Assembly: GCA_963682135.1 (NCBI GenBank) | Contig: OY821645.1 | Coordinates: forward strand, 2,336,001 to 2,400,000 | Direction: 5' to 3' | Length of the DNA: 64,000 nt | Source of the DNA: Methanothrix sp. | GTDB taxonomy: Archaea; Halobacteriota; Methanosarcinia; Methanotrichales; Methanotrichaceae | In this document: in pieces, positions 20,201-36,797 of the stretch | Layout of the letters: every line of letters starts with the position of its first letter | Position numbering within the stretch: position 1 is the first letter of the stretch | Notes under the pieces: model-generated | Seen by the model: only the letters and a program-made list of their open reading frames with translations | What the model was told of the DNA's origin: nothing | Databases searched by the model: none | Translations under genes and position numbers: made by a program

Positions 20201-22942
20201 AGCTTCTATGCAAGAGGCATCACCCTAACTGGCATCAATAATCCGGTTATCAACAGCTTCACGCTGGACCAGGACATAGCTGGAAAGATCAGCGGCATAG
20301 CGGCCAATACCGTAAATCTAAATGCAAATGCAAATGCCAAGATTCAGCAAGGAATTGATCTGGCAAATACAGGCGCATCAGTCAATGTAAATGGGGCAAC
20401 CGGATATACTTATGGGGATGATCTGACCCAGAGCTTCTATGCAAGAGGCATCACCCTAACTGGCATCAATAATCCGGTCATCAAGAGCTTCACGCTGAAT
20501 CAGGACATAGCTGGAAGGATCAGCGGAATAACGGCCAATACCGTAAATGTGAATGCAAATGCTAAGATCCAGCAAGGAATTGATCTGGCAAATACAGGCG
20601 CATCAGTCAATTTAAACGGGGCTGCCGGATACACTTATAGCGATGATCTGACCCAGAGCTTTTATGCAAGAGGCATCACCCTAACTGGCATCAATAATCC
20701 GGTCATCAAGAGCTTCACGCTGAATCAGGACATAGCTGGAAGGATCAGCAGAATAACGGCCAATACCGTAAATGTAAATGCAAATGCCAAGATCCAGCAA
20801 GGAATTGATCTGGCAAATACAGGTGCATCAGTCAATGTAAATGGGGCAGCAGGATACACTTATAGCGATGATCTGACCCAGAGCTTCTATGCAAGAGGCA
20901 TCACCCTAACTGGCATCAATAATCCGGTTATCAACAGCTTCACGCTGGACCAGGACATAGCTGGAAAGATCAGCGGCATAACTGCCAATCATGTAAATGT
21001 GAATGCAAATGCCAAGATCCAGCAAGGAATTGATCTGGCAAATACAGGTGCATCAGTCAATGTAAACGGGGCAGCCGGCTACACTTACAGCGATGATCTG
21101 ACCCAGAGCTTCTATGCAAGAGGTGTGACTTTAACGGGAATTAATAATGCTGTAACAAAGAGCATTTCCCTGGATCAACTGCTAGCCGGAAAGATCAGCG
21201 GAATAACGGCCAAGACAGTAAACGTTCTGAATCCTAATGCTAAGATACAGGAAGGAGTAACCATTGTCAATTCAGGCGGGACAATTAATGTGGGGGCTGG
21301 AAATTACCTTGAAGATGTAGATATCAACAAAGACTTAGTCCTCATAGGAACCGGCAACCCTATTGTCACCAGCATTTCATTGAACGCAGCACTCGGAACA
21401 TGTCCCTATGGTATCTCTGCATCGAAAGTTACCGTCAATCCTCCATCCAAGATTCTTGATAGTATCTTGATATCGTCGAAGGATGTATTTGTTAATGGAG
21501 TTGCAGGATATACATATGGGGATGATCTGACCCAGAGCTTCTATGCAAGAGGCATCACCCTAACTGGCATCAATAATCCGGTTATCAACAGCTTCACGCT
21601 TAATCAGGACATAGCTGGAAGGATCCGCGGAATAAGGGCCAATACAGTAAATGTGAATGCAAATGCCAAGATCCAGCAAGGAATCGACCTGGCAAATACA
21701 GGTGCATCAGTCAATGTAAACGGGGCAGCAGGATACACGTATCGTGATGATTTGACCCAGAGCTTTTATGCAAGAGGCATCACCCTAACTGGCATCAATA
21801 ATCCGGTCATCAACAGCTTCACGCTGGACCAGGACATAGCTGGAAGGATCAGCGGCATAACTGCCAATACCGTAAATGTAAATGCAAATGCCAAGATACA
21901 AGATGGTGTCATCCTTGCATCTTCTGTAGGAACAGTCAATGTGGCGGCTGGGAATTATAGAGAGAACGTTATGGTTGACAAGTCACTGACCGTAAACGGG
22001 GCGGGAGCTGGTAGCAGTATAGTTGATGGCAACAAAGCAGGCTCAGTGTTCATTTTGGGTAAGAATGATACCAACGTGGATGTATCTCTGTCTGGCATGA
22101 CATTAACCGGTGGTACTGGTTCTCAGGATACCGGTGGAACATTTGGTGGCGGTATCATCAACTATGGCAGCTTGTTAGTGACGGACTGCGCAATATCAGG
22201 AAATACCGCAGGTTGGGGTGGTGGCATTCAAAATTCCGGTATAGCGACTATATCTGATACCACAATATCCGGCAACATGGCAAACATCGAGGGTGGCGGG
22301 ATTAGCAGCAGTGGAACCTTGACCGTGAATAACGATAGCATATCCGGGAATACTGCAAACGATGGCGGTGGTGGGATTGGCAACAGCGGTACCTTGACCA
22401 TGAATAGCGGTAGCATAACAGAGAACACAGCAACCGACGGTGGCGGGATTTGCAGCCTGGGTGGCACAGTGAACATAGATGGTGGCAGCATAAACAAGAA
22501 CATGGCAAAAGTGAGTGGCGGCGGGATTTACAGCCAGGGTACTGTGCATCTGCATGGAGGCAACATAACCGGGAACGTAGCTTCGGACGGGGGAGGAATT
22601 TACAGCAGCGGAACCATAACCATGAACAAAGGTAGCATAAACAGGAACACCGCAAACAACGGTACAAGCGGCGGTATTTTCAATACTGGCACCTTGAACC
22701 TGGGCGGAGGTAACATAACCGAGAATACAGCAACCAATGAAGAAGGAGTATATTCCCCCATCTATTCGCATATTGCATTTTATGGCGAACAAGTTGTTAT
22801 AAAATCTAACAAGGCGCATCTACCATCGCCTTCTGAATTGAATTGGTATCAGGGATGGGGAGTCTATTTAGAAAATGGCACACCTGCTACAACAGGTAAC
22901 TTTAATCAGGCAACACAAGTGACGGGCAACATCCATATTTAG
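17267..22942 (+). CDS. Giant secreted/surface protein: signal peptide, lectin-like beta-propeller, tandem repeats, C-terminal beta-helix (GGGI repeats)
   Basis: Hydrophobic N-terminus; WxxLGGxITSxP blades; KIQQGIDLA repeats; GGGI/SGNTA repeats; true start could be 17288. Confidence 0.88.
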   Translation: MMWGAFCMRVCICPITVLLIMIFCINTGLANMPNDNNQSTQNDSPIINPHPMIFSLKEHRWDDMSGTITSNASTFKDSLGRSHIFVIGADNGLWDNVDGVWQGLGGTITSVPCAVEDRQGVTHIFVIGTDGALFDRVLGTGWTNLGGYVTSNPSAALSPDGHIKIAVKGGDNSLWVKDLTTGEWSGLGGKITSNPQLIFDLHGKMHVLAQGGDGALWDNVDGNWQYRGGLMTSDARPIINPFNPRFIYTSVRGIDGALWCNALDTASGTSTWTGLGGLIAGTPSPSVDTDGMLHNFVRGGDGGLWDNVDGGWYGLGGLIVSDPCAFRDKDGKLRVAVVGGANGLWVNTIGIGMTPTTLVGSFACDYNKIQSAINAISSGGIIKVLSGSYPEDVNIDKELTLIGIGNPTASSFALNTILGTDSGGITAPLITVNTGFKIQQGIDLANTGASVNVNGAAGYTYRDDLTQSFYARGITLTGINNPVINSFTLNQDIAGRIRGITANTVNVNANAKIQQGIDLANTGASVNVNGAAGYTYSDDLTQSFYARGITLNGINNPVINSFTLNQDIAGRISGITANNVNVNANAKIQQGVDLANTGASVNVNGAAGYTYCDDLTQSFYAKGVTLTGINNAVTKSISLDQLLAGKISGITAKTVNVLNPNAKIQEGVTIVNSGGTINVGAGNYLEDVDINKDLVLIGTGNPIVASISLNAALGTCPYGIYASKVTVNPPSKILDSILISSKDVFVNGVAGYTYGDDLTQSFYARGITLTGINNPVINTFTLDQDVAGRINGITANNVNVNANAKIQQGIYLANTGASVNVNGAAGYTYSDDLTQSFYAKGVTLTGINNAVTKSISLDQLLAGKISGITAKTVNVLNPNAKIQEGVTIVNSGGTINVGAGNYLEDVDINKDLVLIGTGNPIVTSISLNAALGTCPYGIYASKVTVNPPSKILDSILISSKDVFVNGVAGYTYSDDLTQSFYARGITLTGINNPVINSFTLDQDIAGKISGIAANTVNLNANANAKIQQGIDLANTGASVNVNGATGYTYGDDLTQSFYARGITLTGINNPVIKSFTLNQDIAGRISGITANTVNVNANAKIQQGIDLANTGASVNLNGAAGYTYSDDLTQSFYARGITLTGINNPVIKSFTLNQDIAGRISRITANTVNVNANAKIQQGIDLANTGASVNVNGAAGYTYSDDLTQSFYARGITLTGINNPVINSFTLDQDIAGKISGITANHVNVNANAKIQQGIDLANTGASVNVNGAAGYTYSDDLTQSFYARGVTLTGINNAVTKSISLDQLLAGKISGITAKTVNVLNPNAKIQEGVTIVNSGGTINVGAGNYLEDVDINKDLVLIGTGNPIVTSISLNAALGTCPYGISASKVTVNPPSKILDSILISSKDVFVNGVAGYTYGDDLTQSFYARGITLTGINNPVINSFTLNQDIAGRIRGIRANTVNVNANAKIQQGIDLANTGASVNVNGAAGYTYRDDLTQSFYARGITLTGINNPVINSFTLDQDIAGRISGITANTVNVNANAKIQDGVILASSVGTVNVAAGNYRENVMVDKSLTVNGAGAGSSIVDGNKAGSVFILGKNDTNVDVSLSGMTLTGGTGSQDTGGTFGGGIINYGSLLVTDCAISGNTAGWGGGIQNSGIATISDTTISGNMANIEGGGISSSGTLTVNNDSISGNTANDGGGGIGNSGTLTMNSGSITENTATDGGGICSLGGTVNIDGGSINKNMAKVSGGGIYSQGTVHLHGGNITGNVASDGGGIYSSGTITMNKGSINRNTANNGTSGGIFNTGTLNLGGGNITENTATNEEGVYSPIYSHIAFYGEQVVIKSNKAHLPSPSELNWYQGWGVYLENGTPATTGNFNQATQVTGNIHI
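18575..21892 (+). repeat. Intragenic array of 15 near-identical units, order A A B C D B C D A A A B C D A
   Basis: A=225 nt, B=228, C=207, D=219-225; B-C-D superunit of 654 nt (19025 to 19679). Confidence 0.95.
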
Positions 22943-24194: not shown

Positions 24195-25808
24195 ATGAAT
24201 CGTAGCCAAAAATGTAGGAGCTTTATGAGACGCAGTTTGTATAAGCTTACCTTCGTGCTGCTTCTTTCCATACTGATTTTGGGCACCGCATGCCAGGGTG
24301 GGGAGAATTCCAGCGGGACGGTTCTAAAGATCGGCACGCCCAATGTAGTTAAATCTGCCAGCATTCTGGGAGACAGCAACATGGGCGTCTTGGCCCACCT
24401 TTCCAATCCCACTCTGATGAAGATGGACGAAAAAGGAAAGATAGTAGGCTTGACGGCAAAAAGCTATGAGGTCTCGGAAGATGGAAAGGTCTGGACGTTT
24501 CCCATCAACGACGACCTGTACTGGAGCGACGGCCAAAAGCTGACGCCTGACGACGTACAGTTCACCTTCAGCTATCTGAGAGAAAACTATCCTGCCGCGG
24601 GCTGGATGAAGAATACGGTGGACAACATATCAGTGGAAGGCGACAGCGTGGTCTTCAAGCTGAATAAGCCCTACTCCCGGCTGAACCTGGAGTTTGCCAC
24701 CTATCCCATTCTGGCCAAACACATCTGGGAAAAGGTGGATAAGCCCGTGGAATACACCAACGAAGGGGAGAACGTAGGCTGTGGTCCCTTCTACATCGCC
24801 AAGACAGACCTTGGTGCAGGAGTTATTTACTTCCAGAAGAATCCCTATTGGAAGGGAGCATCCCCCAAATTCGATTCCCTGGAGATTCACACCTATAGCA
24901 ATATGGACGTTCTTTCCCTGGCCCTGGAGAAGGGTGACGAGGATGCCTACTACAAGTATGCAGGAACCTATCCCTACGCCAGCATGCAAAAGCTCAAAGA
25001 TACCGGCAACTTCGATTTTGTAGAGAAGGACAATATTGGACTTATATTCCTGGGCATGAACCTGCAAAAGCAGCCTATGTCGGATATCAGCTTCAGAAAA
25101 GCCCTCTCTTACGCCATTAATTACAGCGAGATTTTAAAGCTTGATGCATTGGGATACGGCCAGGTTCCAAACACCGGTTTCGTACCTCCCAGCATGATGG
25201 ACTTTAAGGAGACGGCTAAGCTCGATCACAACCTCACCCAGGCAAAGAGCATTCTTGAAGATGCCGGATACAAAGACACCAATGGAAATGGCATCGTGGA
25301 GGGCAAGGACGGCAAAGACATAAAACTTACATTCCTCACAAGAACCGACTACCAGCGAACGGCAGAACTCATGGTAGAATACCTGAAGCTTCTCGGAATC
25401 GACAGCGAATTGAAGAATGTAGATTCGAGCACCTGGATCAAGCAGAAGGATGCTGGCGAGTACGATCTGACCATTACAAGGTCCACCCCCTGGGGAATGC
25501 TCATGCATGCCAACTGGGGTACGGGCTACTTCGACTCCAGAAGAACTGGCGAAGGAGTCTTGCATGTGCTTGATGATCCTGTTTTCCTCAAGCTGTGCGA
25601 TGATATTCTCGCCTCCACGAGCGAAGATCAATTGCAGGACTATGCCTATGAACTGCAGGACTACTATGCAGAAAATCTGCCGGCCATAGCTCTATACTGG
25701 AGCAAGGTAGAGACTCCCTACAATCGAGCCTGGCAGGGCTGGTACTCCGACCCGCTCTACGGCATATTCAATGTGGACAATTTCCTCTCCGTGGAGAAGA
25801 GCCAATGA
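24195..25808 (+). CDS. ABC substrate-binding protein, Opp/Dpp/NikA family 5 (start may be 24225)
   Basis: Lipobox-like GTAC; WSDGQKLTPDDVQFT, GCGPF, NPYW. Confidence 0.92.
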   Translation: MNRSQKCRSFMRRSLYKLTFVLLLSILILGTACQGGENSSGTVLKIGTPNVVKSASILGDSNMGVLAHLSNPTLMKMDEKGKIVGLTAKSYEVSEDGKVWTFPINDDLYWSDGQKLTPDDVQFTFSYLRENYPAAGWMKNTVDNISVEGDSVVFKLNKPYSRLNLEFATYPILAKHIWEKVDKPVEYTNEGENVGCGPFYIAKTDLGAGVIYFQKNPYWKGASPKFDSLEIHTYSNMDVLSLALEKGDEDAYYKYAGTYPYASMQKLKDTGNFDFVEKDNIGLIFLGMNLQKQPMSDISFRKALSYAINYSEILKLDALGYGQVPNTGFVPPSMMDFKETAKLDHNLTQAKSILEDAGYKDTNGNGIVEGKDGKDIKLTFLTRTDYQRTAELMVEYLKLLGIDSELKNVDSSTWIKQKDAGEYDLTITRSTPWGMLMHANWGTGYFDSRRTGEGVLHVLDDPVFLKLCDDILASTSEDQLQDYAYELQDYYAENLPAIALYWSKVETPYNRAWQGWYSDPLYGIFNVDNFLSVEKSQ

Positions 25809-26665
25809 GCTGTTGGACGGATCAATGGAAGGATTTCGTCACAAGATCCAGCTATCTGCAAACCCTTGCTGAGGAGAAGATCTCCAACGACCAATTTTGG
25901 AGAAGCTACGGGATATATGACCAGACACTCATGTATTCGGGATACCCGGGAGAGATCCTTGCCAAGATCTCCTCTTTTATTTCTCCGGGGGCGACATTGC
26001 TGGACATTGGTGCTGGAACGGGGGCCTTTGCCATCCCTCTTTCCAGGAAGACTTCCCGGACCATTGCCGTTGATCCGTCTGAATATCAATTGCAGATCTT
26101 ATCGGAGAAAGCCCGGCGAGAGGGCTTGAAAAATATAGTCACTATTAAAAAAGAGTGGAAATATGTGCAGCCCTCTGAGATTTCGGCAGCGAGCGTTTCA
26201 GGAGTGGAGATTTCAGGAGGAGATATTTCCGGAGAGCGTATACCGAGATCGGATATTGATATTCCCGCCGTCGATTATTCCCTGGCGGCCTACAGTCTCT
26301 TCGATGAGGATATCGAACAATTCCTTACCAAGATGATTGATGTTACCAGAAGGGGAGTATTTATCGTCTTTCGAGCAGAAGGCATCGATCCATTGAATAA
26401 ATTTGCTTACGGGCCAAGGCCTTTTGCAGATTACACCTGCCTTCATCACATCCTGAATGATCTGGGTTATCAGTTGGATGTAATGCTATTTCCGAGGAAA
26501 TATTCTCTTCCCATGAACCTGGTGTTCCAACAGCACCGGTTCTGCAAGAAGGGCGGCGAGGAGCTGCTCGGTTACTTGAGCAGAGAAGGTAGGCTGGAGG
26601 AGAGAGCAGACGGAAAATGGGCATCATTCCAGACCGCTGATGCTCTTCTCTACCTGATTCGCTAA
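25805..26665 (+). CDS. Class I SAM-dependent methyltransferase
   Basis: LLDIGAGTG, AVDPS; ATGA overlap with the binding-protein gene. Confidence 0.9.
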   Translation: MSCWTDQWKDFVTRSSYLQTLAEEKISNDQFWRSYGIYDQTLMYSGYPGEILAKISSFISPGATLLDIGAGTGAFAIPLSRKTSRTIAVDPSEYQLQILSEKARREGLKNIVTIKKEWKYVQPSEISAASVSGVEISGGDISGERIPRSDIDIPAVDYSLAAYSLFDEDIEQFLTKMIDVTRRGVFIVFRAEGIDPLNKFAYGPRPFADYTCLHHILNDLGYQLDVMLFPRKYSLPMNLVFQQHRFCKKGGEELLGYLSREGRLEERADGKWASFQTADALLYLIR

Positions 26666-27628
26666 ATGGGAGTCAAAAGACCAATGTCTCTGGCGGCAAA
26701 GAAGGCGAGCCGATACGTTATCGCAATTTTCATCATATTCTCGTTGAACTTTGTCATTCCCAGAGCGATGCCCGGCGATCCTCTCACCAATCTACTGGGA
26801 GAAGATGTCATATTGACGGACAGCACGGTGACGCAACTACGCAGCGAGATGGGCCTGGACAGATCCATGCCATCGCAATATCTCGATTACTGGCAGAGCA
26901 TCCTGCAGCTGGACCTGGGATATTCCTTTCACCTGCATTCACCTGTTTCAGAGATCATATTCACCCGCATGAAGTGGACGCTGCTGCTGGCCTTGCCTTC
27001 TCTTCTCTTGGGCAGCGTGCTGGGAACAGTCCTGGGAGCGCTCGCCGGCTGGAGGTGCGGTGATAGGAGCCAGAAGATGAAGACCGCATTTTTCCTGGGC
27101 GTTTATTGTACCCCACCCTACTTCCTCTGCTTGCTGGCACTCTATCTGTTCTCCTTCAAGTTTGCCCTCTTTCCCTTGAAGGGATTCTATGACACGGGAT
27201 CGGCAACCGACATTGCTCACCATCTTTTTCTGCCCATCCTGGTGATGACCCTATTTTCATTATCGCGAAACTACATGATCATGCGGGGTAGCGTACTTCA
27301 GGAAAAGAGCAGCCTCTACGCGACCTATGCCAGGGCGAAGGGACTCTATGATGATGAAATTTTATTCAGACATGTCTTCAAGAACGCCCTTCTTCCCATC
27401 ATCACACTCTTGGCCATGGATTTCGGTTTTATCCTGAGCGGGGCACTATTCGTCGAGATCGTCTTCTCCATGAACGGCATGGGCAACCTCATCTATGATG
27501 CACTCCTTTCCCGAGACTATCCGATGTTGCAGGGATCTTTTCTTATCATCACCCTCATGGTGGTTTCTGCCAACCTGATAGCCGATATTCTCTACAGCCG
27601 CCTCGACCCGCGAGTGAGGTGGCACTGA
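26666..27628 (+). CDS. ABC permease (OppB/NikB-like)
   Basis: MPGDP, ARAKGL, HVFKNA, VEIVFS, RDYP, LDPRV. Confidence 0.93.
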   Translation: MGVKRPMSLAAKKASRYVIAIFIIFSLNFVIPRAMPGDPLTNLLGEDVILTDSTVTQLRSEMGLDRSMPSQYLDYWQSILQLDLGYSFHLHSPVSEIIFTRMKWTLLLALPSLLLGSVLGTVLGALAGWRCGDRSQKMKTAFFLGVYCTPPYFLCLLALYLFSFKFALFPLKGFYDTGSATDIAHHLFLPILVMTLFSLSRNYMIMRGSVLQEKSSLYATYARAKGLYDDEILFRHVFKNALLPIITLLAMDFGFILSGALFVEIVFSMNGMGNLIYDALLSRDYPMLQGSFLIITLMVVSANLIADILYSRLDPRVRWH

Positions 27629-28446
27629 TGCCGGATGTGATGCAAAAGTTCAGTCGCGTGGGCTTATTTTTATTTTTATCTTTTTTGCTTATGGCCGTCT
27701 TCTCCGCCCAACTGGCACCCTATGATCCCTGGATGAGGTTCGAGCCCTACCTCTTTCCCGGCCAGGAGCATATTCTCGGCACAAACGATATGGGACACGA
27801 CATACTCTCCGAACTTATCTATGGATCAAGGGTCTCACTCATCGTGGGCTTTGGAGCGGCCCTCATGGCCACCTTCATCGGCACAATCGTGGGGCTTCTG
27901 GCCGGATACTACAGGGGCACGACTGATGAGATTCTCATGGGGATAACGGATATTTTTCTTATGATTCCCCAGATTCCTCTTATAATCGTGATCGCCTCGT
28001 TCCTGAGGCCCAGCTTCTGGCTCGTCGCCCTTCTCATGGGCACTTTGTGGTGGACCTCCACGGCCAGAGTAGTTCGCAGCAAAGCCTTACAGGTTAGGGA
28101 GAATGGCTTTGTGCAGGCCTCAAGAGCCTTAGGCTTCTCAGATCGGCATATCATCATCACAGACGTGCTGCCCAATATTTTCCATGTGATTATGCCCAAA
28201 TTTCTGCTATCCATTGCCTCGGCCATGATCGCTGAAGCCTCCATATCGTTCTTAGGTTTGGGCGATCCTACCATGAAGAGCTGGGGGATGATGATCAACT
28301 TTGCCTTCACTCGCGGGGGCTTCATAAACGGTTATTGGTGGTGGTACCTGACACCAGGGCTATGCATTACACTTTTTGTTCTTTGTGTAGTTCTCATGGG
28401 CTTTGCCTGGGAAGAACAGGAACAAGCAACCCAGAGGTTAGAATGA
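27619..28446 (+). CDS. ABC permease (OppC/NikC-like)
   Basis: HILGTNDMGHD, LPN, SFLGLG, SWG. Confidence 0.93.
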   Translation: MALMPDVMQKFSRVGLFLFLSFLLMAVFSAQLAPYDPWMRFEPYLFPGQEHILGTNDMGHDILSELIYGSRVSLIVGFGAALMATFIGTIVGLLAGYYRGTTDEILMGITDIFLMIPQIPLIIVIASFLRPSFWLVALLMGTLWWTSTARVVRSKALQVRENGFVQASRALGFSDRHIIITDVLPNIFHVIMPKFLLSIASAMIAEASISFLGLGDPTMKSWGMMINFAFTRGGFINGYWWWYLTPGLCITLFVLCVVLMGFAWEEQEQATQRLE

Positions 28447-29432
28447 ATTCACTCATAATAGATACAGCACCTCTTTTGCAGATTGAGGGGCTGTCCGTAA
28501 GTTTCGAGACGAGTGTTGGCCGGGTCAAGGCAGCCGAGAACGTATGCTTTGAGCTGCATAAAGGAGAGACACTGGCGCTTGTGGGCGAAACGGGTTGCGG
28601 CAAGTCGGTAGTTGCAAGCAGCATAATGCAGCTTTTGCCGCATAATGCCTTTGTAAGGGGCCGGGCTGTCTATGCGGGAAGGGATCTTCTGAGCCTGAGT
28701 GAGGAGGAGATGGCAGGCATACGAGGCAGCGAGATTGCCATTGTATTTCAAAACCCCTCTTTATCCTTAAATCCCATCATGCGAGTGGGTGAGCAGATTG
28801 CCGAAATGCTGCGGGTTCGTAAAGGCTTTCGGCGCATCCTGTCCTTGCAAATGGCCAGAGATATGCTCCGCCGCCTGGGTCTGGAAGGTGGGGAGATGAC
28901 GAGGATGTACCCCTTTCAGTTCTCAGGCGGCATGAATCAGAGGGTGATGATCGCCACATCCATGATTCTCTCGCCCAGGATCATAATAGCAGACGAGCCC
29001 AGCAAAGGATTGGATGGAGCACTGGTTGGGGAGGTAATGGCGGAAATGGTGATGATCAAGCATCAAATGGGAGCCTCTCTTCTGCTCATCACTCATGATC
29101 TCATGCTTGCCAGAGAATTATCGGATAGGATAGCGGTGATGTACTGCGGCGAGATTGTGGAGATCGGCAAGAGCCATGATGTCTTCTCTAAGCCGCTGCA
29201 CCCCTATACTATTGCACTTTTGAGCAGTCTTCCCGAAAGAGGCTTTCAACCCATACCGGGAAGCTCGCCCTCCATGATAAATCCGCCGGCTGGCTGCAAG
29301 TTCCATCCCCGCTGTCCGAATAGCCAGGAGAGGTGCAGGAGGAAGCCGAAGATGACTCAGGTCATTGGCGCAAAAGTGGCCATTGGCTGCAATGAGAGCA
29401 CTGGCAGGGAGGTGAGGTGTTGGCTGTACTGA
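28443..29432 (+). CDS. ABC ATPase (OppD-like)
   Basis: GETGCGKS, FSGGMNQR, HPYT, GCKFHPRC; start reassigned to MNSLII. Confidence 0.93.
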   Translation: MNSLIIDTAPLLQIEGLSVSFETSVGRVKAAENVCFELHKGETLALVGETGCGKSVVASSIMQLLPHNAFVRGRAVYAGRDLLSLSEEEMAGIRGSEIAIVFQNPSLSLNPIMRVGEQIAEMLRVRKGFRRILSLQMARDMLRRLGLEGGEMTRMYPFQFSGGMNQRVMIATSMILSPRIIIADEPSKGLDGALVGEVMAEMVMIKHQMGASLLLITHDLMLARELSDRIAVMYCGEIVEIGKSHDVFSKPLHPYTIALLSSLPERGFQPIPGSSPSMINPPAGCKFHPRCPNSQERCRRKPKMTQVIGAKVAIGCNESTGREVRCWLY

Positions 29433-30106
29433 AGGCGGAAGAACTGGGCAGGATCTACGAATCGGGCCTGATCTTCAAGACGCGGCATGTTGCTTTAGAT
29501 GGTGTATCGCTGGAAATGAACGCTGGCAAGACTCTGGGAGTGATGGGCATCTCAGGCTCAGGCAAGACCACATTGGGTAAGATCCTGGCAGGTCTGGAGA
29601 GGCCATCCACGGGGAGGGTTCTCTTTGCGGGAAAGGATCTCCGGTCCATGAGCGGCAGGGAGTTTGCTGTTTTCAGGAGAGCGGTGCAGATGGTCTTTCA
29701 GGACCCGGAGGGCTCTTTGAATCCCAAAAAGAGCATAGAGCGATCTATTCATGAGGTCCTGGGCCTCATCAAAATTCCCCGCAGAGAATGGCAGGATAGG
29801 ACCGAGGAGATGCTGGATATGGTAGGCCTGTCCGAGGAGTTGCTCTGCCGCTATCCTTTTCAGATCTCGGGCGGACAATGTCAGAGAGTGGCTCTGGGTC
29901 GAGTATTGCTCCTCCGCCCTCAGGTAATAATCCTGGACGAGCCAACCTCAGCTCTCGATATCTCGGTACAGGCTCAGATTCTAAATCTCCTTAAGGATCT
30001 GCAGAGAGATCTAGGTCTTGCCTATCTGCTTATCTCTCATCAGAGCGAGGTGATCAGGTTCATGGCTCATGAAACGATCATCCTTGAGAGCAAAAGAACC
30101 TCTTGA
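29417..30106 (+). CDS. ABC ATPase (OppF/NikE-like)
   Basis: GISGSGKT, ISGGQCQR, DEPTSALD. Confidence 0.93.
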   Translation: MLAVLKAEELGRIYESGLIFKTRHVALDGVSLEMNAGKTLGVMGISGSGKTTLGKILAGLERPSTGRVLFAGKDLRSMSGREFAVFRRAVQMVFQDPEGSLNPKKSIERSIHEVLGLIKIPRREWQDRTEEMLDMVGLSEELLCRYPFQISGGQCQRVALGRVLLLRPQVIILDEPTSALDISVQAQILNLLKDLQRDLGLAYLLISHQSEVIRFMAHETIILESKRTS

Positions 30107-30307
30107 GGAAAGATCGACGATATAGTTTGGCAATTGCTAAGTAATAAGCCCACAGGTATAATATGATGCAAAATTTTGATCTTAATAAAATATCATATAC
30201 ATTATTTACCAACATAGGTTTAGCATAAGAATTATCTAGAATTGTTACTTGGTGCGATTAAAGATAGCTATTTATAATTGAATGGCATTTTGATTAGCGG
30301 TGAAACT

Positions 30308-31027
30308 ATGCACATTCCTGATGGCTATCTAGGGCCATACACCTATATCGCATTGTGGATCATAATGATCCCCATCTGGTACTATGCGGGAAGAAAGCTC
30401 AGCTCTGAGCTGAAGTCCAGGCAGGTTCCCCTGCTGGCGCTGGCAGCAGCGTTCTCTTTTGTTATTATGATGTTCAATGTCCCAATTCCGGGAGGCAGCA
30501 CCGGTCATGCCGTAGGCGCTGCAATAATCGGCATCGTTCTGGGACCATGGGCCGCAGTGATTGCCATATCCGTTGCCCTAGTGCTACAGGCGCTGATGTT
30601 CGGCGATGGTGGTATCACCGCCATCGCAGCCAATTGCTTTAATATGGCTGTAGTTATGCCCTTTGTGGCTTATTATGCTTACAAGCTCATCAGCACAGGC
30701 ACAGAGATTACTTCATCGAGAAGATTCATTGCCGCAGCCATCGCCGGCTATATCTCACTCGTGATAGCATCTGCCTTTACAGGCTTTGAATTCGGCATAC
30801 AGCCAATATTGCATCACACAGCCGAAGGAGTACCACTCTACATGCCCTACCCGCTATCCGTGACGGTTCCTGCCATGGTACTGGAGCATGTTTTCGGATT
30901 CGGCATCCTCGAGGCGCTCATTACGGCTTTGATCTTTGCTTACATCCAGAGAACGGATACCACCCTGCTCTATGGAGAGAAATCTGCAACCCAGAAGAAG
31001 AAAAAGAAGAACGCAAGCACAGCGTGA
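30308..31027 (+). CDS. cbiM: ECF Co/Ni transporter S component
   Basis: N-terminal MHIPDG metal ligand, GSTGH, FGDGG; start reassigned. Confidence 0.93.
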   Translation: MHIPDGYLGPYTYIALWIIMIPIWYYAGRKLSSELKSRQVPLLALAAAFSFVIMMFNVPIPGGSTGHAVGAAIIGIVLGPWAAVIAISVALVLQALMFGDGGITAIAANCFNMAVVMPFVAYYAYKLISTGTEITSSRRFIAAAIAGYISLVIASAFTGFEFGIQPILHHTAEGVPLYMPYPLSVTVPAMVLEHVFGFGILEALITALIFAYIQRTDTTLLYGEKSATQKKKKKNASTA

Positions 31028-31036
31028 GGTAAGACC

Positions 31037-31351
31037 ATGGATAAGATAATAAAAAACTTTGCTATCGGCCTGGCTTTGCTGATTATTCTGGCGCCGCTCG
31101 GGCTTTTAGCTGTTGGAGAGACCTTTGGCGAGTGGGGACCGGAAGAGGTTAAGGAGAAGCTCGGCTTTGTGCCTCCTGGTTTAGAGCAGCTTTCATCGCT
31201 TTGGAGCGCACCCATGTCAGATTATTCCCTGCCCGGCATTGGCGATTCGATGACGGCAGCATCGGCAGCGTATATCCTGTCTGCAGTGCTCGGCGTTGTT
31301 ATCTGCGGTGGTCTGCTCTACTTCGTGGGCAAGAGAATTGCCAAAGACTGA
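31037..31351 (+). CDS. PDGLE-domain (NikN-like) ECF accessory protein
   Basis: GEWG, PPGLE, APMSDY; two TMs. Confidence 0.88.
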   Translation: MDKIIKNFAIGLALLIILAPLGLLAVGETFGEWGPEEVKEKLGFVPPGLEQLSSLWSAPMSDYSLPGIGDSMTAASAAYILSAVLGVVICGGLLYFVGKRIAKD

Positions 31352-31394
31352 CGCCTTTTTTTAAAAATTTTTTTAGATTTGGAGCAGAAAAGAT

Positions 31395-32333
31395 ATGATC
31401 CCGGAATGGATGAAAGAAGTGGATGTTGGCCCGTGCTCGTGTTCTGCGGTATATCACGGCAAGAAAGGCTTTGTAGGGAAGACAATAGATGGAATATTCG
31501 GCTTTTTGCAGGAAGCCTTTGTCTCGGAGACTTATGCCAAGCGAGACGGCTTGCTACAGGCCCTGGACCCCAGGGCCAAACTGATCTCCATTCTTGCCGT
31601 CATATTTGCCACCAGCATGGTAGGTGACCTTCATCTATTGATCGTTGTCTACCTGGCGACATTGCTTTTCGCGTATCTCAGCAAGGTCGATGTTATATTC
31701 TTCATCAAGCGTGTCTGGCTCTTTATTCCCATTTTTGCGGGCATAATCGCCCTGCCCATGGTCTTCAACATCTTCTTCCCCGGCGATCCTCTTATTCAGC
31801 TGGCATACCTTGGTCCAGGAGCTTCCCTCGGGCTTTTTTCTCTGCCGGAGAGCATTTTCATCACCAAACAGGGAGTTGACATGGCGATCATATTCACCAT
31901 GCGTGTGGCGACCTGCGTCTCGTCCGTGGTACTGCTTTTTATCACTACGCCACAGCAAGTGCTCTTCAAGTCCCTGCGCTCAGTTGGAGTTCCCAAGATC
32001 TATGTCCTGACGTTGGAGATGGCTTACAGATACATCTTCTTGCTCATGGACATGGTACGCGAGATGTATACTGCCAAGAAAGCCAGGACCATCAAGTCTC
32101 GAAGCATGCTCGAAGAGCAGAAATGGGTTGGCGGACGCATGGGCTATACGCTGATAAGATCCATAGATATGAGCGAGAAGGTGCATATGGCCATGATGTC
32201 TCGAGGCTTCAATGGCGATGTCAAGGTCATGCAACAGTTCAATATGTTGCATCGGGATTACCTCGCAGTTGCAGCGGCCCTATCTCTGAGCGTATTGCTT
32301 GTGTTGATCGCTCAGGATTTCATTCGGGTGTAA
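31395..32333 (+). CDS. cbiQ: ECF T component
   Basis: LDPRAK, YRYIF, AMMSRGF. Confidence 0.92.
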   Translation: MIPEWMKEVDVGPCSCSAVYHGKKGFVGKTIDGIFGFLQEAFVSETYAKRDGLLQALDPRAKLISILAVIFATSMVGDLHLLIVVYLATLLFAYLSKVDVIFFIKRVWLFIPIFAGIIALPMVFNIFFPGDPLIQLAYLGPGASLGLFSLPESIFITKQGVDMAIIFTMRVATCVSSVVLLFITTPQQVLFKSLRSVGVPKIYVLTLEMAYRYIFLLMDMVREMYTAKKARTIKSRSMLEEQKWVGGRMGYTLIRSIDMSEKVHMAMMSRGFNGDVKVMQQFNMLHRDYLAVAAALSLSVLLVLIAQDFIRV

Positions 32334-32337
32334 GAAT

Positions 32338-33168
32338 ATGGATACCATCTTCGACTTGAGAAACATCTCATATTCATACGTGGGAAAGATAAATGCGCTG
32401 AAAGATATTAGCTTAAAGATAAATCGTGGAGAGCAGGTATCAATAATTGGTACAAACGGTAGCGGCAAATCGACTCTGTTGGCCATCCTGAATGGATTGA
32501 TCTATCCGACTTCAGGAGAATTTTATGCCTTTGACAATCAAATAACCGAGGATATTTTTGATTCCATAAAGGATAATGAATTTCGGTCCTATTTCCGCAC
32601 TAAGGTGGGCTTCGTCTTTCAGAACTCGGATGTTCAGCTCTTCTCGCCTACGGTCTACGAAGAGATCGCCTTTGGGCCCTTGCAGCTTGATGTCCCTCCA
32701 GAGGAGGTTAAACACAGAGTCGAGGACGTTCTGGAGATAATGGAAATCACAAAGCTCCGGGATCGATCGCCTCATACCCTGAGCGGTGGGGAGAAAAAGA
32801 AAGTATGCATAGCTACAGTGCTGGTCAACAACCCGGATGTCCTACTATTAGATGAACCCACGGCAGGATTGGATCCCAGGACGCAGCTATGGCTGGTTGA
32901 GCTCTTGCAGGAGCTGGGAAGATCGGGAAAGACGGTTGTCACTGCCACACACGACCTGGAAACCATTGAGCAGATCAGCAATAGGGCCATAGTCATGGGT
33001 GAAGATCACGGTGTTAAAGTCGACGGAGATACAGTCAAAGTATTAGATGACATGGCGCTCCTCCTCAGTGTCAACCTCATCCACGAGCACATGCATATTC
33101 ACGGAAAGGCGGTCCATGAGCATCTCCATGCCCATGGAAAAGAGCACGCTCACCAACATATGAATTGA
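32338..33168 (+). CDS. cbiO: ECF ATPase with His-rich C-terminal tail
   Basis: GTNGSGKST, LSGGEKK, DEPTAGLD; tail IHEHMHIHGKAVHEHLHAHGKEHAHQH. Confidence 0.92.
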   Translation: MDTIFDLRNISYSYVGKINALKDISLKINRGEQVSIIGTNGSGKSTLLAILNGLIYPTSGEFYAFDNQITEDIFDSIKDNEFRSYFRTKVGFVFQNSDVQLFSPTVYEEIAFGPLQLDVPPEEVKHRVEDVLEIMEITKLRDRSPHTLSGGEKKKVCIATVLVNNPDVLLLDEPTAGLDPRTQLWLVELLQELGRSGKTVVTATHDLETIEQISNRAIVMGEDHGVKVDGDTVKVLDDMALLLSVNLIHEHMHIHGKAVHEHLHAHGKEHAHQHMN

Positions 33169-33362
33169 AGCGTAAGTGTTCGTGAGTCCGATTGGTGCTG
33201 GAATGCTGGACTGGGCCAATCGGAATAACAATTTCTAAATTAGTATTACTTTAGGTTATTTTATCTAGAAAAGTATTTAGATCATAACAGTAGTTGATTA
33301 CTATGTAGTCAGAAGGGCAACTGAGTTCCCAATAGATTGACTATCAAGATAAGGTGGTATAA

Positions 33363-33545
33363 ATGACAGAGAAGCATGAACACGAACACAAGCCGGAAAA
33401 AATGCATGAACATGAACACGAACACGAGATCAAACATGAGCACGAGCATAAGCACGAGGATAAAGCCCACGCACATGAACATGTTCACGAAATAAAGCAT
33501 AAACATGAGCATGGGGAGGAAGAAGCGCATAAAAAGAAGGAGTGA
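33363..33545 (+). CDS. 60-aa His/Glu-rich (HE)n putative metal-binding protein
   Basis: 19 His by manual count in HxHxH runs; AGGTGG SD. Confidence 0.85.
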   Translation: MTEKHEHEHKPEKMHEHEHEHEIKHEHEHKHEDKAHAHEHVHEIKHKHEHGEEEAHKKKE

Positions 33546-33579
33546 AAGAATATCAAAGGATAAAGGGTGGTGAATTCTG

Positions 33580-33948
33580 ATGAATCATGTTGACAGATCA
33601 TTTTCATTTACGAGGATTGATAGAAAAGATGAGCTGATGGACGCGATGTTCAACCACAAATGGCCTCTTTGCTGCAGCTTTTATCACGAGAAACTGCTCT
33701 ACCTGAGTGATGGTGAGTGTGAGGATATGCCGGAATACGCTGTCGTGGCTATTGATAAAACGGATGGGCGCTTTTGCGTTCATGGCCGCGAGGTGGGTAG
33801 GATCAAGCCCGCCAGCATGCAGCTCGCAGAGATGCCAAAGTTCATCCAGGAGATGAAAGCGAGCATATGTAATGCCGGGAATCCAGTCCAGTTCGTGGCA
33901 GAGCCAAAATGGCATCATTGCTGCCAGCTTTGCAGCTTGGATGATTAG
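33580..33948 (+). CDS. Cys/His-rich hypothetical protein
   Basis: WPLCCSFYH, LYLSDGECED-PEYAVV, WHHCCQLC; GGTGGTG SD. Confidence 0.8.
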   Translation: MNHVDRSFSFTRIDRKDELMDAMFNHKWPLCCSFYHEKLLYLSDGECEDMPEYAVVAIDKTDGRFCVHGREVGRIKPASMQLAEMPKFIQEMKASICNAGNPVQFVAEPKWHHCCQLCSLDD

Positions 33949-34467
33949 CGAAATGCATTCGCCTGCCGTTTTATATTTTTGGCTTAACTATGGTCTTGAA
34001 TTGCTACTTAAATCCAGGAGTAAGCAATTCTGATGCATTTTCGTCTATATCCTGATTGTCTCCCCTAGAGCAAAACGGCTTTATGCAACATGGCATCAAC
34101 TTTGAAGAAAATTGAGCACTCTGTGGATGGCATGCGCGAGGAAATCTCGCCACCAAAACACTATGCTGTAGGTTGTATAGTGGATCAACACGTTATTTTG
34201 TCCAACCGCATCATTCTCCCTAAAATCCTTATAAAGCATTAAACATATTAACTATCTGTCCTAATAATATCATTTCCATAAGCAACACTTATCCGAATAA
34301 CATATTTAAAACAGAAGATTTATGCATAATCGCAAAAATGGTGCTACAAATAGTGGCCCTTATCCTTTACAAAAGTTTAATCAATACTTGAAAAAAGCCT
34401 CACAAAGCATTAAGTACTTGATATAAGTAATTAGGATCTATTAAAAATGAAATGGAGGTGAATCAAA

Positions 34468-34584
34468 ATGTGTTGCCATAATGATAATAAGCACGAACAC
34501 GCACACGCTCACGATGGTAAAGAGCACGTCCATGAGCATATCCATGATGGAGATCACAAGCACGGACACAAGTGCTGCCATTAA
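34468..34584 (+). CDS. 38-aa His/Cys-rich micro-protein (Hpn-like composition), not in ORF track
   Basis: GGAGGTGA SD; MCCHNDNKHEHAHAHDGKEHVHEHIHDGDHKHGHKCCH* (13 His, 4 Cys). Confidence 0.85.
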   Translation: MCCHNDNKHEHAHAHDGKEHVHEHIHDGDHKHGHKCCH

Positions 34585-34619
34585 TTCCAATACAGTTGGT
34601 CATAAATTTTTATTAAGAA

Positions 34620-34683
34620 TATGGGACGCTGGCAATTGGTCCTTGAGCGAACCGCAAGGATTCAATGCCAGAGAGATTCCATA
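34620..34683. terminator. Long imperfect hairpin between convergent genes
   Basis: CTGGCA/TGCCAG, GTCCTTG/CAAGGAT and TATGGGA/TTCCATA arms. Confidence 0.5.
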
Positions 34684-34697
34684 ATGAAGTCCATCTA

Positions 34698-36797
34698 TTA
34701 TAACCATCTGGCAAGAACTTCTGCCAGCTCTCTTTTCTGAAAAGGTTTGGCAATGAAATCGCTCATCCCTGCCTGAATACACTTCTCCCGGTCACCTCGC
34801 ATGGTAGCCGCAGTCATGGCGATTATTGGAATGCCCGGATTAAGTGCCTTCGATCCTTCCTGACGAATGACTCGTGCGGCCTCGAAACCGTCCATCTCGG
34901 GCATTTGGCAGTCCATCAACAGCAGGTCGTAGGGAATTATCTGGAGCACATTGACAGCTTCCTTACCATTGGCCACCACATCAGCTCGAAGGCCCATCTT
35001 TTTCAGCATGGCCTGTGCTACTTTTTGATTTATGGGATTGTCCTCTGCCACCAAGATGCGTATTTTGCTTGCAGTCTTTAGAAATTGCAGGCTCTGCAGC
35101 GAAGATTTCATAGTGCCGTTCTCATCAATTCTTACAGATATTTCATCGGCAGATCCACACACGACAGGCTGCTTCTCAAGCACCGCCGTGAACCAGAAGG
35201 TAGACCCTTTGCCTTCTTTGCTTTCCAAACCAATCTTGCCACCCATCAATTCGGCCAGATTTTTGGAAATGGCCAACCCCAGGCCGGTGCCGCCGTACTG
35301 GCGCGTGGTCGAGCTATCCACCTGAGTAAAAGGCGAGAAAAGAATATCCTGTCGACTTTCCGGGATGCCGATGCCGGTATCGCTGACAGAAAAACGAATT
35401 ATGGCATTTGCATTGTCTTCGCTCTCCAGGCTAACGCGGATCACTATCTCGCCCACCTCGGTAAACTTAACGGCATTGTTTGCCAGGTTGACTAGAATCT
35501 GGCGCAGCCTTCCCGGATCGCCTCTCAGCCGAGAAGGCACGCCGGACTCTATAGAACAGACCAGCTCCAGCTCTTTCTCATGAGCACCAGGAGCCAGGAG
35601 ATCTACTACATCTTTCAGCATGCTGGCCAGATCGAAGTCCAGCCTTTCCAGCTCCAGTTTGCGGGCTTCAATTTTAGAGAAATCCAGTATGTCGTTGATG
35701 AGAGAGAGAAGCATCTCTCCACTGATTCGAGCAATTTTTGCATATTCATGCTGCTCTGCATTCAAATCCATATCCAGAAGCATTCCGGTCATGCCAATGA
35801 CACCGTTTAAAGGGGTGCGAATCTCGTGACTCATATTGGCCAGAAATTCGGATTTGGCAGAATTGGCCTGCTCTGCTCTTGCAGCCATCTTTTTGGCATG
35901 CTCTGTGGCAATTTCCAGTTGCAGATTGGTTTTTTTCAGCTCTTCCTCGAATAGCTTATGTCTAGTGATGTCATTGAGAATTACCACCTTACCGCTGAAC
36001 TTCTCACTGACATCAAGCATCTGCTCGATCTTGACCTGGAATTGAAGGAGGCCCTTGCTGGTTAGTGCCTGCTTCTCGAAGATGACTTGCATCTGGCCGC
36101 TGGCATCCAATGCAGCTAACTCATCGGCAATGAATGGAAAGGACTCTCTGGTCTTATGTTTGTCGTAGTACGTAGCTCCTGGAATGCTGATGCTAAAGAA
36201 AATCTCCGAAGCAGCGTGATTCAGATTCTCAATGCGATTCTCCTGGTCAAGTAGAAATACAGGGTCTGTGATGCTTTCGAAGATGGTTAAGTACTTGTTT
36301 TTCTCGTTTGTCATGCCGCGATTAGCAGATTGCAGCTCCGCTAGCATCCGATTATCGGTAAGACAGTTCCACTCTGTGCAAAAGCCCAGCTCCATGTGAT
36401 CAAAGAATCGATCGATATGCAGTAGATATTGCCGCTCATCCTCGATCCCAAATCCCGCTTGCATAATGAGGTCTTTGTAGCTCTGCTGGTAATATTTCAT
36501 CAGACCCAAGAACATGCCAAAGCTTACACCCCGTTCGCGATGTCTTTGGGCCTCGATGATGCCAAAAGAATCAATTGAATCCTTTGTATAATCCTCCTCT
36601 GGCAGAAGCTCCGGCACACCGGATTGATGCGCCAAAGCCACCAGAAGGGATTGAGATATGCCTGCTATGGAGATTCTCCAGGCTTCGGCCAATGTCGAGG
36701 TATATCTGGTGTAGCCTTGCTTCTTTGCATAAGCGAGAACCTGTTGCATCAGCCAATCCTCATGATTTGCCACAAGTTCTGCTAACCTGGTCATCAT
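34698..36797 (-). CDS. Hybrid sensor histidine kinase (N-terminal helical sensor, PAS, HisKA, HATPase, REC)
   Basis: [43 protein letters not shown]; start reassigned to MMTRL. Confidence 0.93.

Follow-up and report, generated by a model that had tools for sequence, protein, structure and literature searches.

A cross-domain family of histidine-rich microproteins with mirror CCH termini, linked to nickel-type importers

A short gene at 34468..34584 on the plus strand of a 64,000-nucleotide stretch of Methanothrix sp. DNA (contig OY821645.1, positions 2,336,001 to 2,400,000; the whole stretch is termed the window below) is a member of a new cross-domain family of histidine-rich microproteins. 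The family, here called MCCH...CCH, has the pattern M-C-C-H, three to four alternating His units and C-C-H, and is distinguished by these mirror CCH termini and by its linkage to Ni-type importers. The gene is real, conserved and under protein-level purifying selection; the family is largely unannotated and almost never called by gene callers; and it is non-randomly linked to nickel-type uptake transporters in both archaea and bacteria. On balance, and with somewhat more conviction than doubt, we take the peptide to be a cytoplasmic acceptor, buffer or chaperone for Ni(II), possibly also Co, that is coupled to uptake and whose metal binding we infer.

Results

A conserved microprotein gene under purifying selection

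The gene encodes MCCHNDNKHEHAHAHDGKEHVHEHIHDGDHKHGHKCCH, of which 13 of the 38 residues are His and four are Cys. CCH stands right after Met1 and again as the final three residues, placing the two CC pairs at residues 2-3 and 36-37, and two HxHxHDG units lie between. Among the 30,823 six-frame open reading frames (ORFs) of at least 30 aa in the 3.04-Mb genome, this one has the highest His fraction (34%). The gene and its flanking elements are as follows.

34468..34584 (including the stop codon), plus strand: gene for the 38-aa Cys4/His13 microprotein of the MCCH...CCH family, defined by ORF, orthologues and codon statistics
34454..34461, plus strand: Shine-Dalgarno (SD) sequence GGAGGTGA, spaced 6 nt from the ATG
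34393..34429, plus strand: promoter region at about -75 to -39 from the ATG, with a purine-rich stretch resembling a B-recognition element (BRE) and then TATA-like boxes
34587..34611, plus strand: small 5-bp hairpin (34587-34599) and T5 run (34607-34611), from predicted fold and sequence
34629..34671, unstranded: stem-loop in the gap that separates the peptide gene from its convergent neighbour, from predicted fold

A tblastn-type search of 40 relatives returned 16 full-length (residues 1-38), stop-free matches with 63-97% identity in 14 of the 24 same-genus genomes, a tally that rises to 15 if one weak, stop-containing match is counted. A profile of 16 orthologues detected the gene in 53 of 104 same-family genomes, some with two to three copies, and in none of 196 genomes from seven other families of the class. 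The codon alignment of 17 sequences has 15, 13 and 38 variable columns out of 41 at codon positions 1, 2 and 3, respectively. Its median proportion of nonsynonymous differences (pN) is 0.12, against 0.84 for synonymous ones (pS), with many pairs saturated at synonymous sites, and the median ratio of the corresponding rates (dN/dS) is 0.087 over the 57 of 136 pairs for which dS could be computed. Across 38 distinct sequences M1, C2, H4, H13, H15, H20, H22, E23, H30, H32, H34, C36, C37 and H38 are invariant, while C3, K8, H9, H11, G17, H24, H26 and D27 are conserved in at least 90%; all four Cys and ten His are thus invariant or nearly so. The original prediction, made from the sequence alone, had described the ORF, its SD, the 13 His and four Cys, the CCH at each end and the HxHxH-DG repeats, all of which are present, and had proposed conservation and synonymous bias as a check, which the open frame in the 53 family genomes and the third-position excess now bear out.

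The best explanation of the surrounding signals is that the gene is monocistronic: a BRE/TATA promoter of its own and a strong ribosome-binding site precede it, and a terminator hairpin follows. A GGAGG no more than 20 nt from the start accompanies 53 of the 54 archaeal family loci and 14 of the 15 bacterial ones. An upstream alignment of 43 distinct orthologues contains a conserved aaaG..ATT(A/T)TATA block near -58, and a strict regular expression finds TATA in 39 of 54 archaeal loci (median start -58). Eleven of the 15 loci negative by this expression carry, as judged by eye, the variants TTAATAG, ATATATAG or TTTATAG; the window's own copy is degenerate, ATTAAGTA/ATATAAGTA, and is not among these 11. 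A scan for sigma-70 and terminator consensus sequences was uninformative in this archaeal host. As the original prediction had held, the upstream region is AT-rich, with 28% G+C in the 228 nt at 34240-34467 against 50% in the window and 46% in the ORF, and a downstream hairpin is present, weak at 34587-34599 and larger at 34629-34671. The entire spacer before the gene (33949-34467) is unusually long (519 nt) and AT-rich (35% G+C); it has no Rfam match, and its only ORFs are short ones (50 and 34 aa) that are not conserved. An Rfam scan of 29900-34800 gave only a sub-threshold snoRNA match.

A terminator-like hairpin is found 3' of the ORF in archaea and bacteria alike. In the window, the small hairpin with its T5 run (34587..34611) is a possible archaeal oligo-T terminator, weak and not conserved in sequence, and the stem-loop at 34629-34671 is likely a terminator or a structure of the 3' untranslated region, both as predicted folds. 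The 119-nt segment 34582-34700, which holds the two, has only a modest folding advantage over dinucleotide-preserving shuffles (z -1.7). Equivalent segments of the orthologues have z < -2 in 17 of 21 distinct loci (against mononucleotide shuffles), with a median free energy of -17.9 kcal/mol and a median z of -4.0, and their inner stem sequences differ. RNAalifold on a MAFFT alignment of the region recovers only four outer pairs, because the inner stems misalign. A minus-strand peptide motif 3' of the gene appears conserved, but a conserved hairpin explains it better than an antisense ORF does. As a separate observation, the bacterial loci L106-L136 have a conserved, long terminator-like element in the first ~90 nt after the 53-aa ORF that encodes the bacterial form: GGAAAGCCACG lies just past the stop and a second copy, AGCCACGAAGG, follows. 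Each of the two is able to base-pair with TTCGTGGCTTTCC, which lies farther downstream, ahead of a T-rich run, making alternative structures possible.

The idea that the ORF is a chance frame, or marks some non-coding element (a repeat, RNA or attenuation leader peptide, for instance), could draw on its shortness, low complexity, CAY-rich repeats and absence from annotations, but it is already contradicted by the codon statistics, the profile census and the bacterial form. Variation is biased to third positions with low dN/dS, the amino-acid pattern is kept between archaea and bacteria despite different DNA, and the SD is near-universal. Furthermore, there is no co-directional gene directly downstream to be attenuated, the next gene being a convergent hybrid histidine kinase; this and the lack of an Rfam match together exclude an RNA element or leader peptide. 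We accordingly assign this idea a negligible probability.

Distribution and annotation status of the family

The archaeal contigs with matches are labelled Methanothrix, Methanosaeta, Methanotrichaceae metagenome-assembled genomes (MAGs) and one Candidatus Methanocrinis strain, and three more are labelled Methanospirillum. Another 16 are labelled Desulfobacca, Syntrophobacterales, Thermodesulfobacteriota or 'delta proteobacterium'. The bacterial form has 53 aa, as against 38-41 aa in archaeal members; it begins with MCCH and ends with CCH as they do, and has one extra His unit and its own SD. In one bacterial sub-form the C-terminus is CC followed by Lys. The original prediction's description of an archaeal peptide is therefore too narrow, the 53-aa form being encoded in Thermodesulfobacteriota MAGs. 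Further matches in public contigs turned out to be His-rich loops or tails of membrane proteins of 217-563 aa (EamA-type or lacking a Pfam domain) and were set aside as non-members. Directly upstream of the 53-aa CCH gene on one bacterial MAG contig (L130:3472-3762, plus strand) we observed a 96-aa, Cys-free, His-rich ORF with two copies of the same HxHxH units, which resembles a tandem paralogue without the CCH ends.

Profile searches with two orthologue alignments yielded eight matches in 5.77 billion proteins (restricted to lengths of 20-72 aa) and six in 1.84 billion, all of them of the MCCH...CCH type; three of the matched predicted proteins are named 'hypothetical protein' and several carry spurious extensions. 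The window's exact peptide and ten of ten other members are absent from a collection of 15 billion proteins, even though the latter include members from complete chromosomes and one cultured strain; these 11 absences agree with the earlier suggestion that the gene is too short for gene callers. The peptide has no match in Pfam (E <= 0.01), NCBIfam (E <= 1) or the PDB sequences (E <= 10), and an ESM Atlas search gave nothing usable (best score 0.87, to unnamed clusters). A search of the literature on His-rich and small nickel proteins in methanogens and archaea found no such family described.

Linkage to nickel-type uptake transporters

We examined synteny in 71 distinct loci (52 Methanotrichaceae-type, three Methanospirillum-labelled and 16 bacterial), counting a locus as linked if a CbiM, PDGLE, CbiQ, NikA/B/C-like, DUF4198 or cation diffusion facilitator (CDF) gene lies within 3 kb. 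By this count 40 of the 71 loci are linked: 27 of the 52 Methanotrichaceae-type, one of the three Methanospirillum-labelled and 12 of the 16 bacterial ones. With identical criteria the background is 1.8% of this genome, or 7.4% if generic ATP-binding cassette (ABC) ATPases are counted. Importers of the energy-coupling factor (ECF) type are the commonest neighbour in this census. There are at least six arrangements with Nik/Cbi-type uptake or DUF4198 genes in archaea and bacteria. In archaea, the gene lies after CbiO and genes for two small proteins (the 60-aa and 122-aa proteins described below), directly after CbiM-PDGLE, directly after NikE, divergent from NikD, or upstream of DUF4198. The NikE and NikD genes here are orthologues of genes of the window's own Nik/Opp-type importer. 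In bacteria, it is the last gene, 110-303 nt after CbiO, of operons with fused CbiM-PDGLE, CbiQ and CbiO (eight loci), or it follows DUF4198 (four loci). Since these arrangements are diverse and recur in two domains of life, we argue for a functional link despite the kinship among the genomes. Of the original prediction's Ni/Co storage peptide, the tie to Ni/Co handling is upheld by this synteny, whereas besides 'storage' the peptide might equally serve as an acceptor, chaperone, buffer or regulator.

Three loci from other genera of this family (L044, L053 and L054) are arranged differently, the peptide gene being divergent from a CDF exporter (Cation_efflux/ZT_dimer) fused to a Nitro_FeMo-Co domain. 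There it sits between an FrhB-like gene and this CDF-Nitro_FeMo-Co (NifB/X-like) fusion, and in two of the three an insertion sequence with an rve integrase has landed beside it.

The genomic neighbourhood in the window

Upstream of the peptide gene the window carries two importer operons and two genes for small proteins.

24195..30106, plus strand: Nik/Opp-type ABC importer with an SBP_bac_5 binding protein, an embedded methyltransferase, two permeases and two ATPases (Pfam)
30278..33168, plus strand: ECF metal importer (Pfam, NCBIfam), made up of the next four genes
30278-31027 (likely true start 30308), plus strand: CbiM-like S component
31037-31351, plus strand: PDGLE-domain N component (PDGLE 39.7 bits, not Pfam CbiN)
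31395-32333, plus strand: CbiQ
32338-33168, plus strand: CbiO ATPase with a His-rich C-terminal tail
33363..33545, plus strand: unannotated His/Glu/Lys-rich ORF of 60 aa, 32% His and no Cys, between CbiO and the 122-aa gene
33580..33948, plus strand: 122-aa protein (Cys122) of no Pfam or NCBIfam family, often directly upstream of the peptide gene

In the window, 2.1 kb separate the end of CbiQ from the peptide gene. The importer's PDGLE gene is the only one in the genome, and the sole canonical CbiN (91 bits) accompanies the genome's other CbiM, ~360 kb away. CbiN is Co-specific and the non-homologous NikN Ni-specific, according to PMC2667541. PDGLE may correspond to NikN; if so, the importer beside the peptide gene, with an N component that is PDGLE and not CbiN, would be Ni-type (NikMNQO) rather than Co-type (CbiMNQO). 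The context, read from the sequence, would thus favour Ni over Co for the peptide.

The ~28 residues at the end of CbiO (33085-33168, plus strand) are His-rich, which is unusual for CbiO/NikO, and could form a metal hand-over site. The 60-aa ORF, which lies 1.1 kb before the peptide gene, ranks second in His fraction among all 30,823 ORFs of the genome, so that one locus holds the genome's two most His-rich ORFs together with a His-tailed CbiO. It is conserved in relatives, has no Pfam or NCBIfam match and varies in frame between 36 and 60 aa, which suggests repeat expansion and contraction. The 122-aa protein has an invariant H3, C31 and C-terminal WHHxCxxC. Its family is present in 77 of 105 same-family genomes and in none of the 16 genomes of one genus (g12) that has the peptide. 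A paralogue lies at G000:C1:2325525-2325887, and one paralogue class stands directly upstream of the peptide gene in ~16 genomes. The AlphaFold2 (AF2) model of the 122-aa protein has a mean predicted local distance difference test score (pLDDT) of 84.6, and no convincing fold match was found for it (Foldseek E >= 0.23; best VIA Z 4.2; nothing usable in the Atlas).

Two further observations concern the wider window. A gene resembling S-adenosylmethionine (SAM)-dependent methyltransferases (25805-26665, plus strand) separates the NikA-like binding protein from the permeases, an arrangement that recurs in L046, L056, L048 and L099. Farther upstream, a 1,891-aa ORF (17267-22942, plus strand) has no Pfam match above threshold.

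Expression and predicted structure

Four environmental runs labelled as RNA (X1-X4) each contain ~5% of the words of 33200-34700; the parts of this interval that they leave uncovered are no evidence of silence. In the metatranscriptome X2, the two contigs that lie fully on the stretch (34455-34584 and 34555-34666) both fall on the peptide ORF, and one further contig overlaps just 35 nt at 33776-33810. In X4, a cDNA library only guessed to be RNA, a contig spans 34453-34586 and is flanked by adapter sequence. X1 covers the neighbouring 122-aa gene and X3 has no contig. The X2 and X4 contigs offer a weak hint that the peptide gene is expressed.

AF2 models the peptide, at low confidence, as a beta-hairpin (9-15/18-24) around G17. 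Combined with the i, i+2 alternation of His around G17, the model suggests two strands that might carry all their His on one face.

Discussion

Proposed role and its alternatives

The peptide has neither a hydrophobic segment nor a signal peptide and is hence probably cytoplasmic. Its fixed CCH termini and variable central His units suggest, as a reading of the alignment, two kinds of site: specific Cys/His sites at the ends and a His-rich region for several ions between them. In the mechanism that we propose, imported Ni(II), possibly also Co(II), would be captured by the peptide, with the two terminal Cys-Cys-His sites offering high-affinity thiolate/imidazole coordination. When Cys is the second residue, the specificity of methionine aminopeptidase normally allows the initiator Met to be excised. 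Removal of Met1 would leave Cys-Cys-His at the N-terminus, with the His in third place as in amino-terminal Cu(II)- and Ni(II)-binding (ATCUN) sites. An invariant Gly would join the alternating HxHxH strands, which might present a His-lined face to several more ions. The peptide would in this way buffer the free metal and hold it for carbon monoxide dehydrogenase/acetyl-CoA synthase (CODH/ACS), for F430 and methyl-coenzyme M reductase (MCR), and for hydrogenases. A more ambitious version, which we offer tentatively and consider doubtful as a whole, is that MCCH...CCH proteins are a new cross-domain class of nickel metallochaperones and the cytoplasmic acceptor hitherto missing from the picture of ECF-type Nik(MN)QO importers. 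Here the N-terminal CCH and its C-terminal mirror would act as square-planar sites of the Ni-hook/ATCUN kind, receiving Ni(II) perhaps via the His tail of the ATPase, and acetoclastic methanogens and their syntrophic partners would keep further ions on the His-lined beta-hairpin, for use in CODH/ACS and in making F430.

Several points weigh against a nickel role coupled to uptake. The Cys4/His13 composition alone suits Zn, Cu, Cd and Co equally, and the equation of PDGLE with NikN is a presumed one. Thirty-one of the 71 loci have no such transporter within 3 kb: at least eight of these have flanks cut by contig ends, and the window's own short locus (L001) scored 'none' solely for this reason, but the archaeal loci L040, L042, L043 and L047 lack such a neighbour on long or complete contigs. 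One clade adjoins a CDF exporter rather than an importer, and since the related genomes are not independent, the figure of 40 of 71 exaggerates how many separate events there were. The gene is accessory, being absent from about half of the same-family genomes, among them ones that are 98-99% complete. A search for an operator shared by the promoters of nikA, cbiM, the 60-aa ORF and the peptide gene gave only AT-rich 8-mers, and both NikR genes lie elsewhere in the genome. Finally, the AF2 model of the peptide has a pLDDT of 59, and the RNA contigs, those of one run being RNA only by guess, cannot prove transcription, translation, strand or ends.

Among the other roles that might be envisaged, a general soft-metal buffer or metallothionein-like detoxifier, chelating whichever thiophilic ion (Zn, Cd, Cu(I) or Co) is in excess, would accord with the established chemistry of four Cys and many His as generic ligands for Zn, Cu and Cd, with the CDF transporter that adjoins the gene in three loci of other genera and with the 31 loci lacking a nearby Ni-type transporter. 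We nevertheless regard it as unlikely, for the dominant contexts are Nik/Cbi-type uptake and neither efflux nor Zn systems, no metallothionein or other family is matched in Pfam or NCBIfam, and the gene lies at the genome's PDGLE-type importer, not at its CbiN-type one. Less probable again is a regulatory small protein that senses the metal load and modulates the adjacent transporter or ATPase instead of carrying or storing metal. MntS, a small protein that acts on Mn transport in E. coli, would supply a precedent by analogy. The small size of the peptide, its place as the last gene of the transporter operon in bacteria and the His-rich tail of the neighbouring CbiO as a potential interaction or hand-over site would also be in keeping with regulation. 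Nonetheless, the gene is also found away from transporters, and the very high His content suggests a capacity for several ions over a single sensing site.

Least credible of these roles, and in our estimate improbable, is an exported and modified peptide metallophore, a 'nickelophore' akin to the ribosomally synthesised and post-translationally modified peptides (RiPPs) that would be re-imported by NikABCDE-like or TonB-dependent systems. Some loci do adjoin NikA-type binding-protein importers, a TonB-dependent receptor (L134) or DUF4198; two of 11 scanned bacterial loci (L106 and L131) have both a methyltransferase and a radical-SAM gene at 1-2 kb downstream, and a third (L126) has a methyltransferase alone; and a methyltransferase is embedded in the window's nikA-like operon. 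Yet the sequence has no signal peptide, leader/core architecture or hydrophobic segment, a Pfam scan of nine archaeal and 13 other loci found no maturase or exporter conserved across the family, and the ECF importers that are its commonest neighbour take up the bare ion.

A cytoplasmic nickel acceptor would be of wider interest. Methanothrix-type methanogens are widely held to account for a major part of the methane formed biologically, and their CODH/ACS and F430 make their need for nickel very high. The uptake, holding and distribution of nickel in methanogens is an acknowledged gap in knowledge, and the peptide is a concrete and easily synthesised candidate for an intracellular nickel pool or carrier. 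The family also illustrates clearly how functional genes can escape standard annotation, and with it any transcriptomics and proteomics that build on that annotation.

Relationship to known systems

The tails of nickel chaperones offer one comparison. CooJ, UreE and HypB have His/Cys-rich C-terminal metal-binding tails. These tails and those of SlyD and HspA are unstructured and His/Cys-rich, bind several Ni ions and feed Ni-enzyme maturation, a likeness to what is proposed for the MCCH...CCH family; but they are appendages of folded chaperone domains, whereas the MCCH...CCH proteins are free-standing at 38-53 aa and have no matching domain. For SlyD a tail with a nickel role is described in PMC11198818, and for HspA a His/Cys-rich extension in PMC4671568. 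If Met1 is removed, the His in third place and the adjacent thiolates would resemble ATCUN sites and the Ni-hook of nickel superoxide dismutase and would suit square-planar Ni(II); those sites, however, are without the mirror C-terminal CCH of this family. MntS of E. coli and the archaeal zinc-finger micro-proteins (on the latter, see PMC11241148 and PMC10716476) are likewise shorter than 60 aa, metal-related and overlooked by gene callers. They have no sequence relation to the family, and the Haloferax ones use C(P)XCG zinc knuckles in place of CCH and His repeats.

The closest likeness is to Hpn and Hpn-2. Hpn is a small His-rich protein that sequesters Ni, with five Ni per monomer and one or two -CC- motifs, and it is restricted to gastric Helicobacter (PMC4671568). 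The two kinds of protein share small size, a very high His content, a -CC- near the terminus and a proposed part in the intracellular sequestration and trafficking of Ni. They differ in that Hpn has poly-His stretches, whereas the MCCH...CCH family has strictly alternating HxHxH and fixed CCH ends, and in that the latter occurs in methanogens and Thermodesulfobacteriota, physically linked to uptake transporters, rather than in gastric Helicobacter. The original prediction had called the likeness compositional and homology unproven, and our results agree: no homology was detected in profile searches of the 5.77 and 1.84 billion proteins or in Pfam or NCBIfam, and these searches and that of the PDB sequences returned no Hpn, although Hpn itself was not compared pairwise with the peptide. 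The best reading, by analogy, is accordingly that the MCCH...CCH family may be Hpn-like in its inferred function and has no detectable homology to Hpn.

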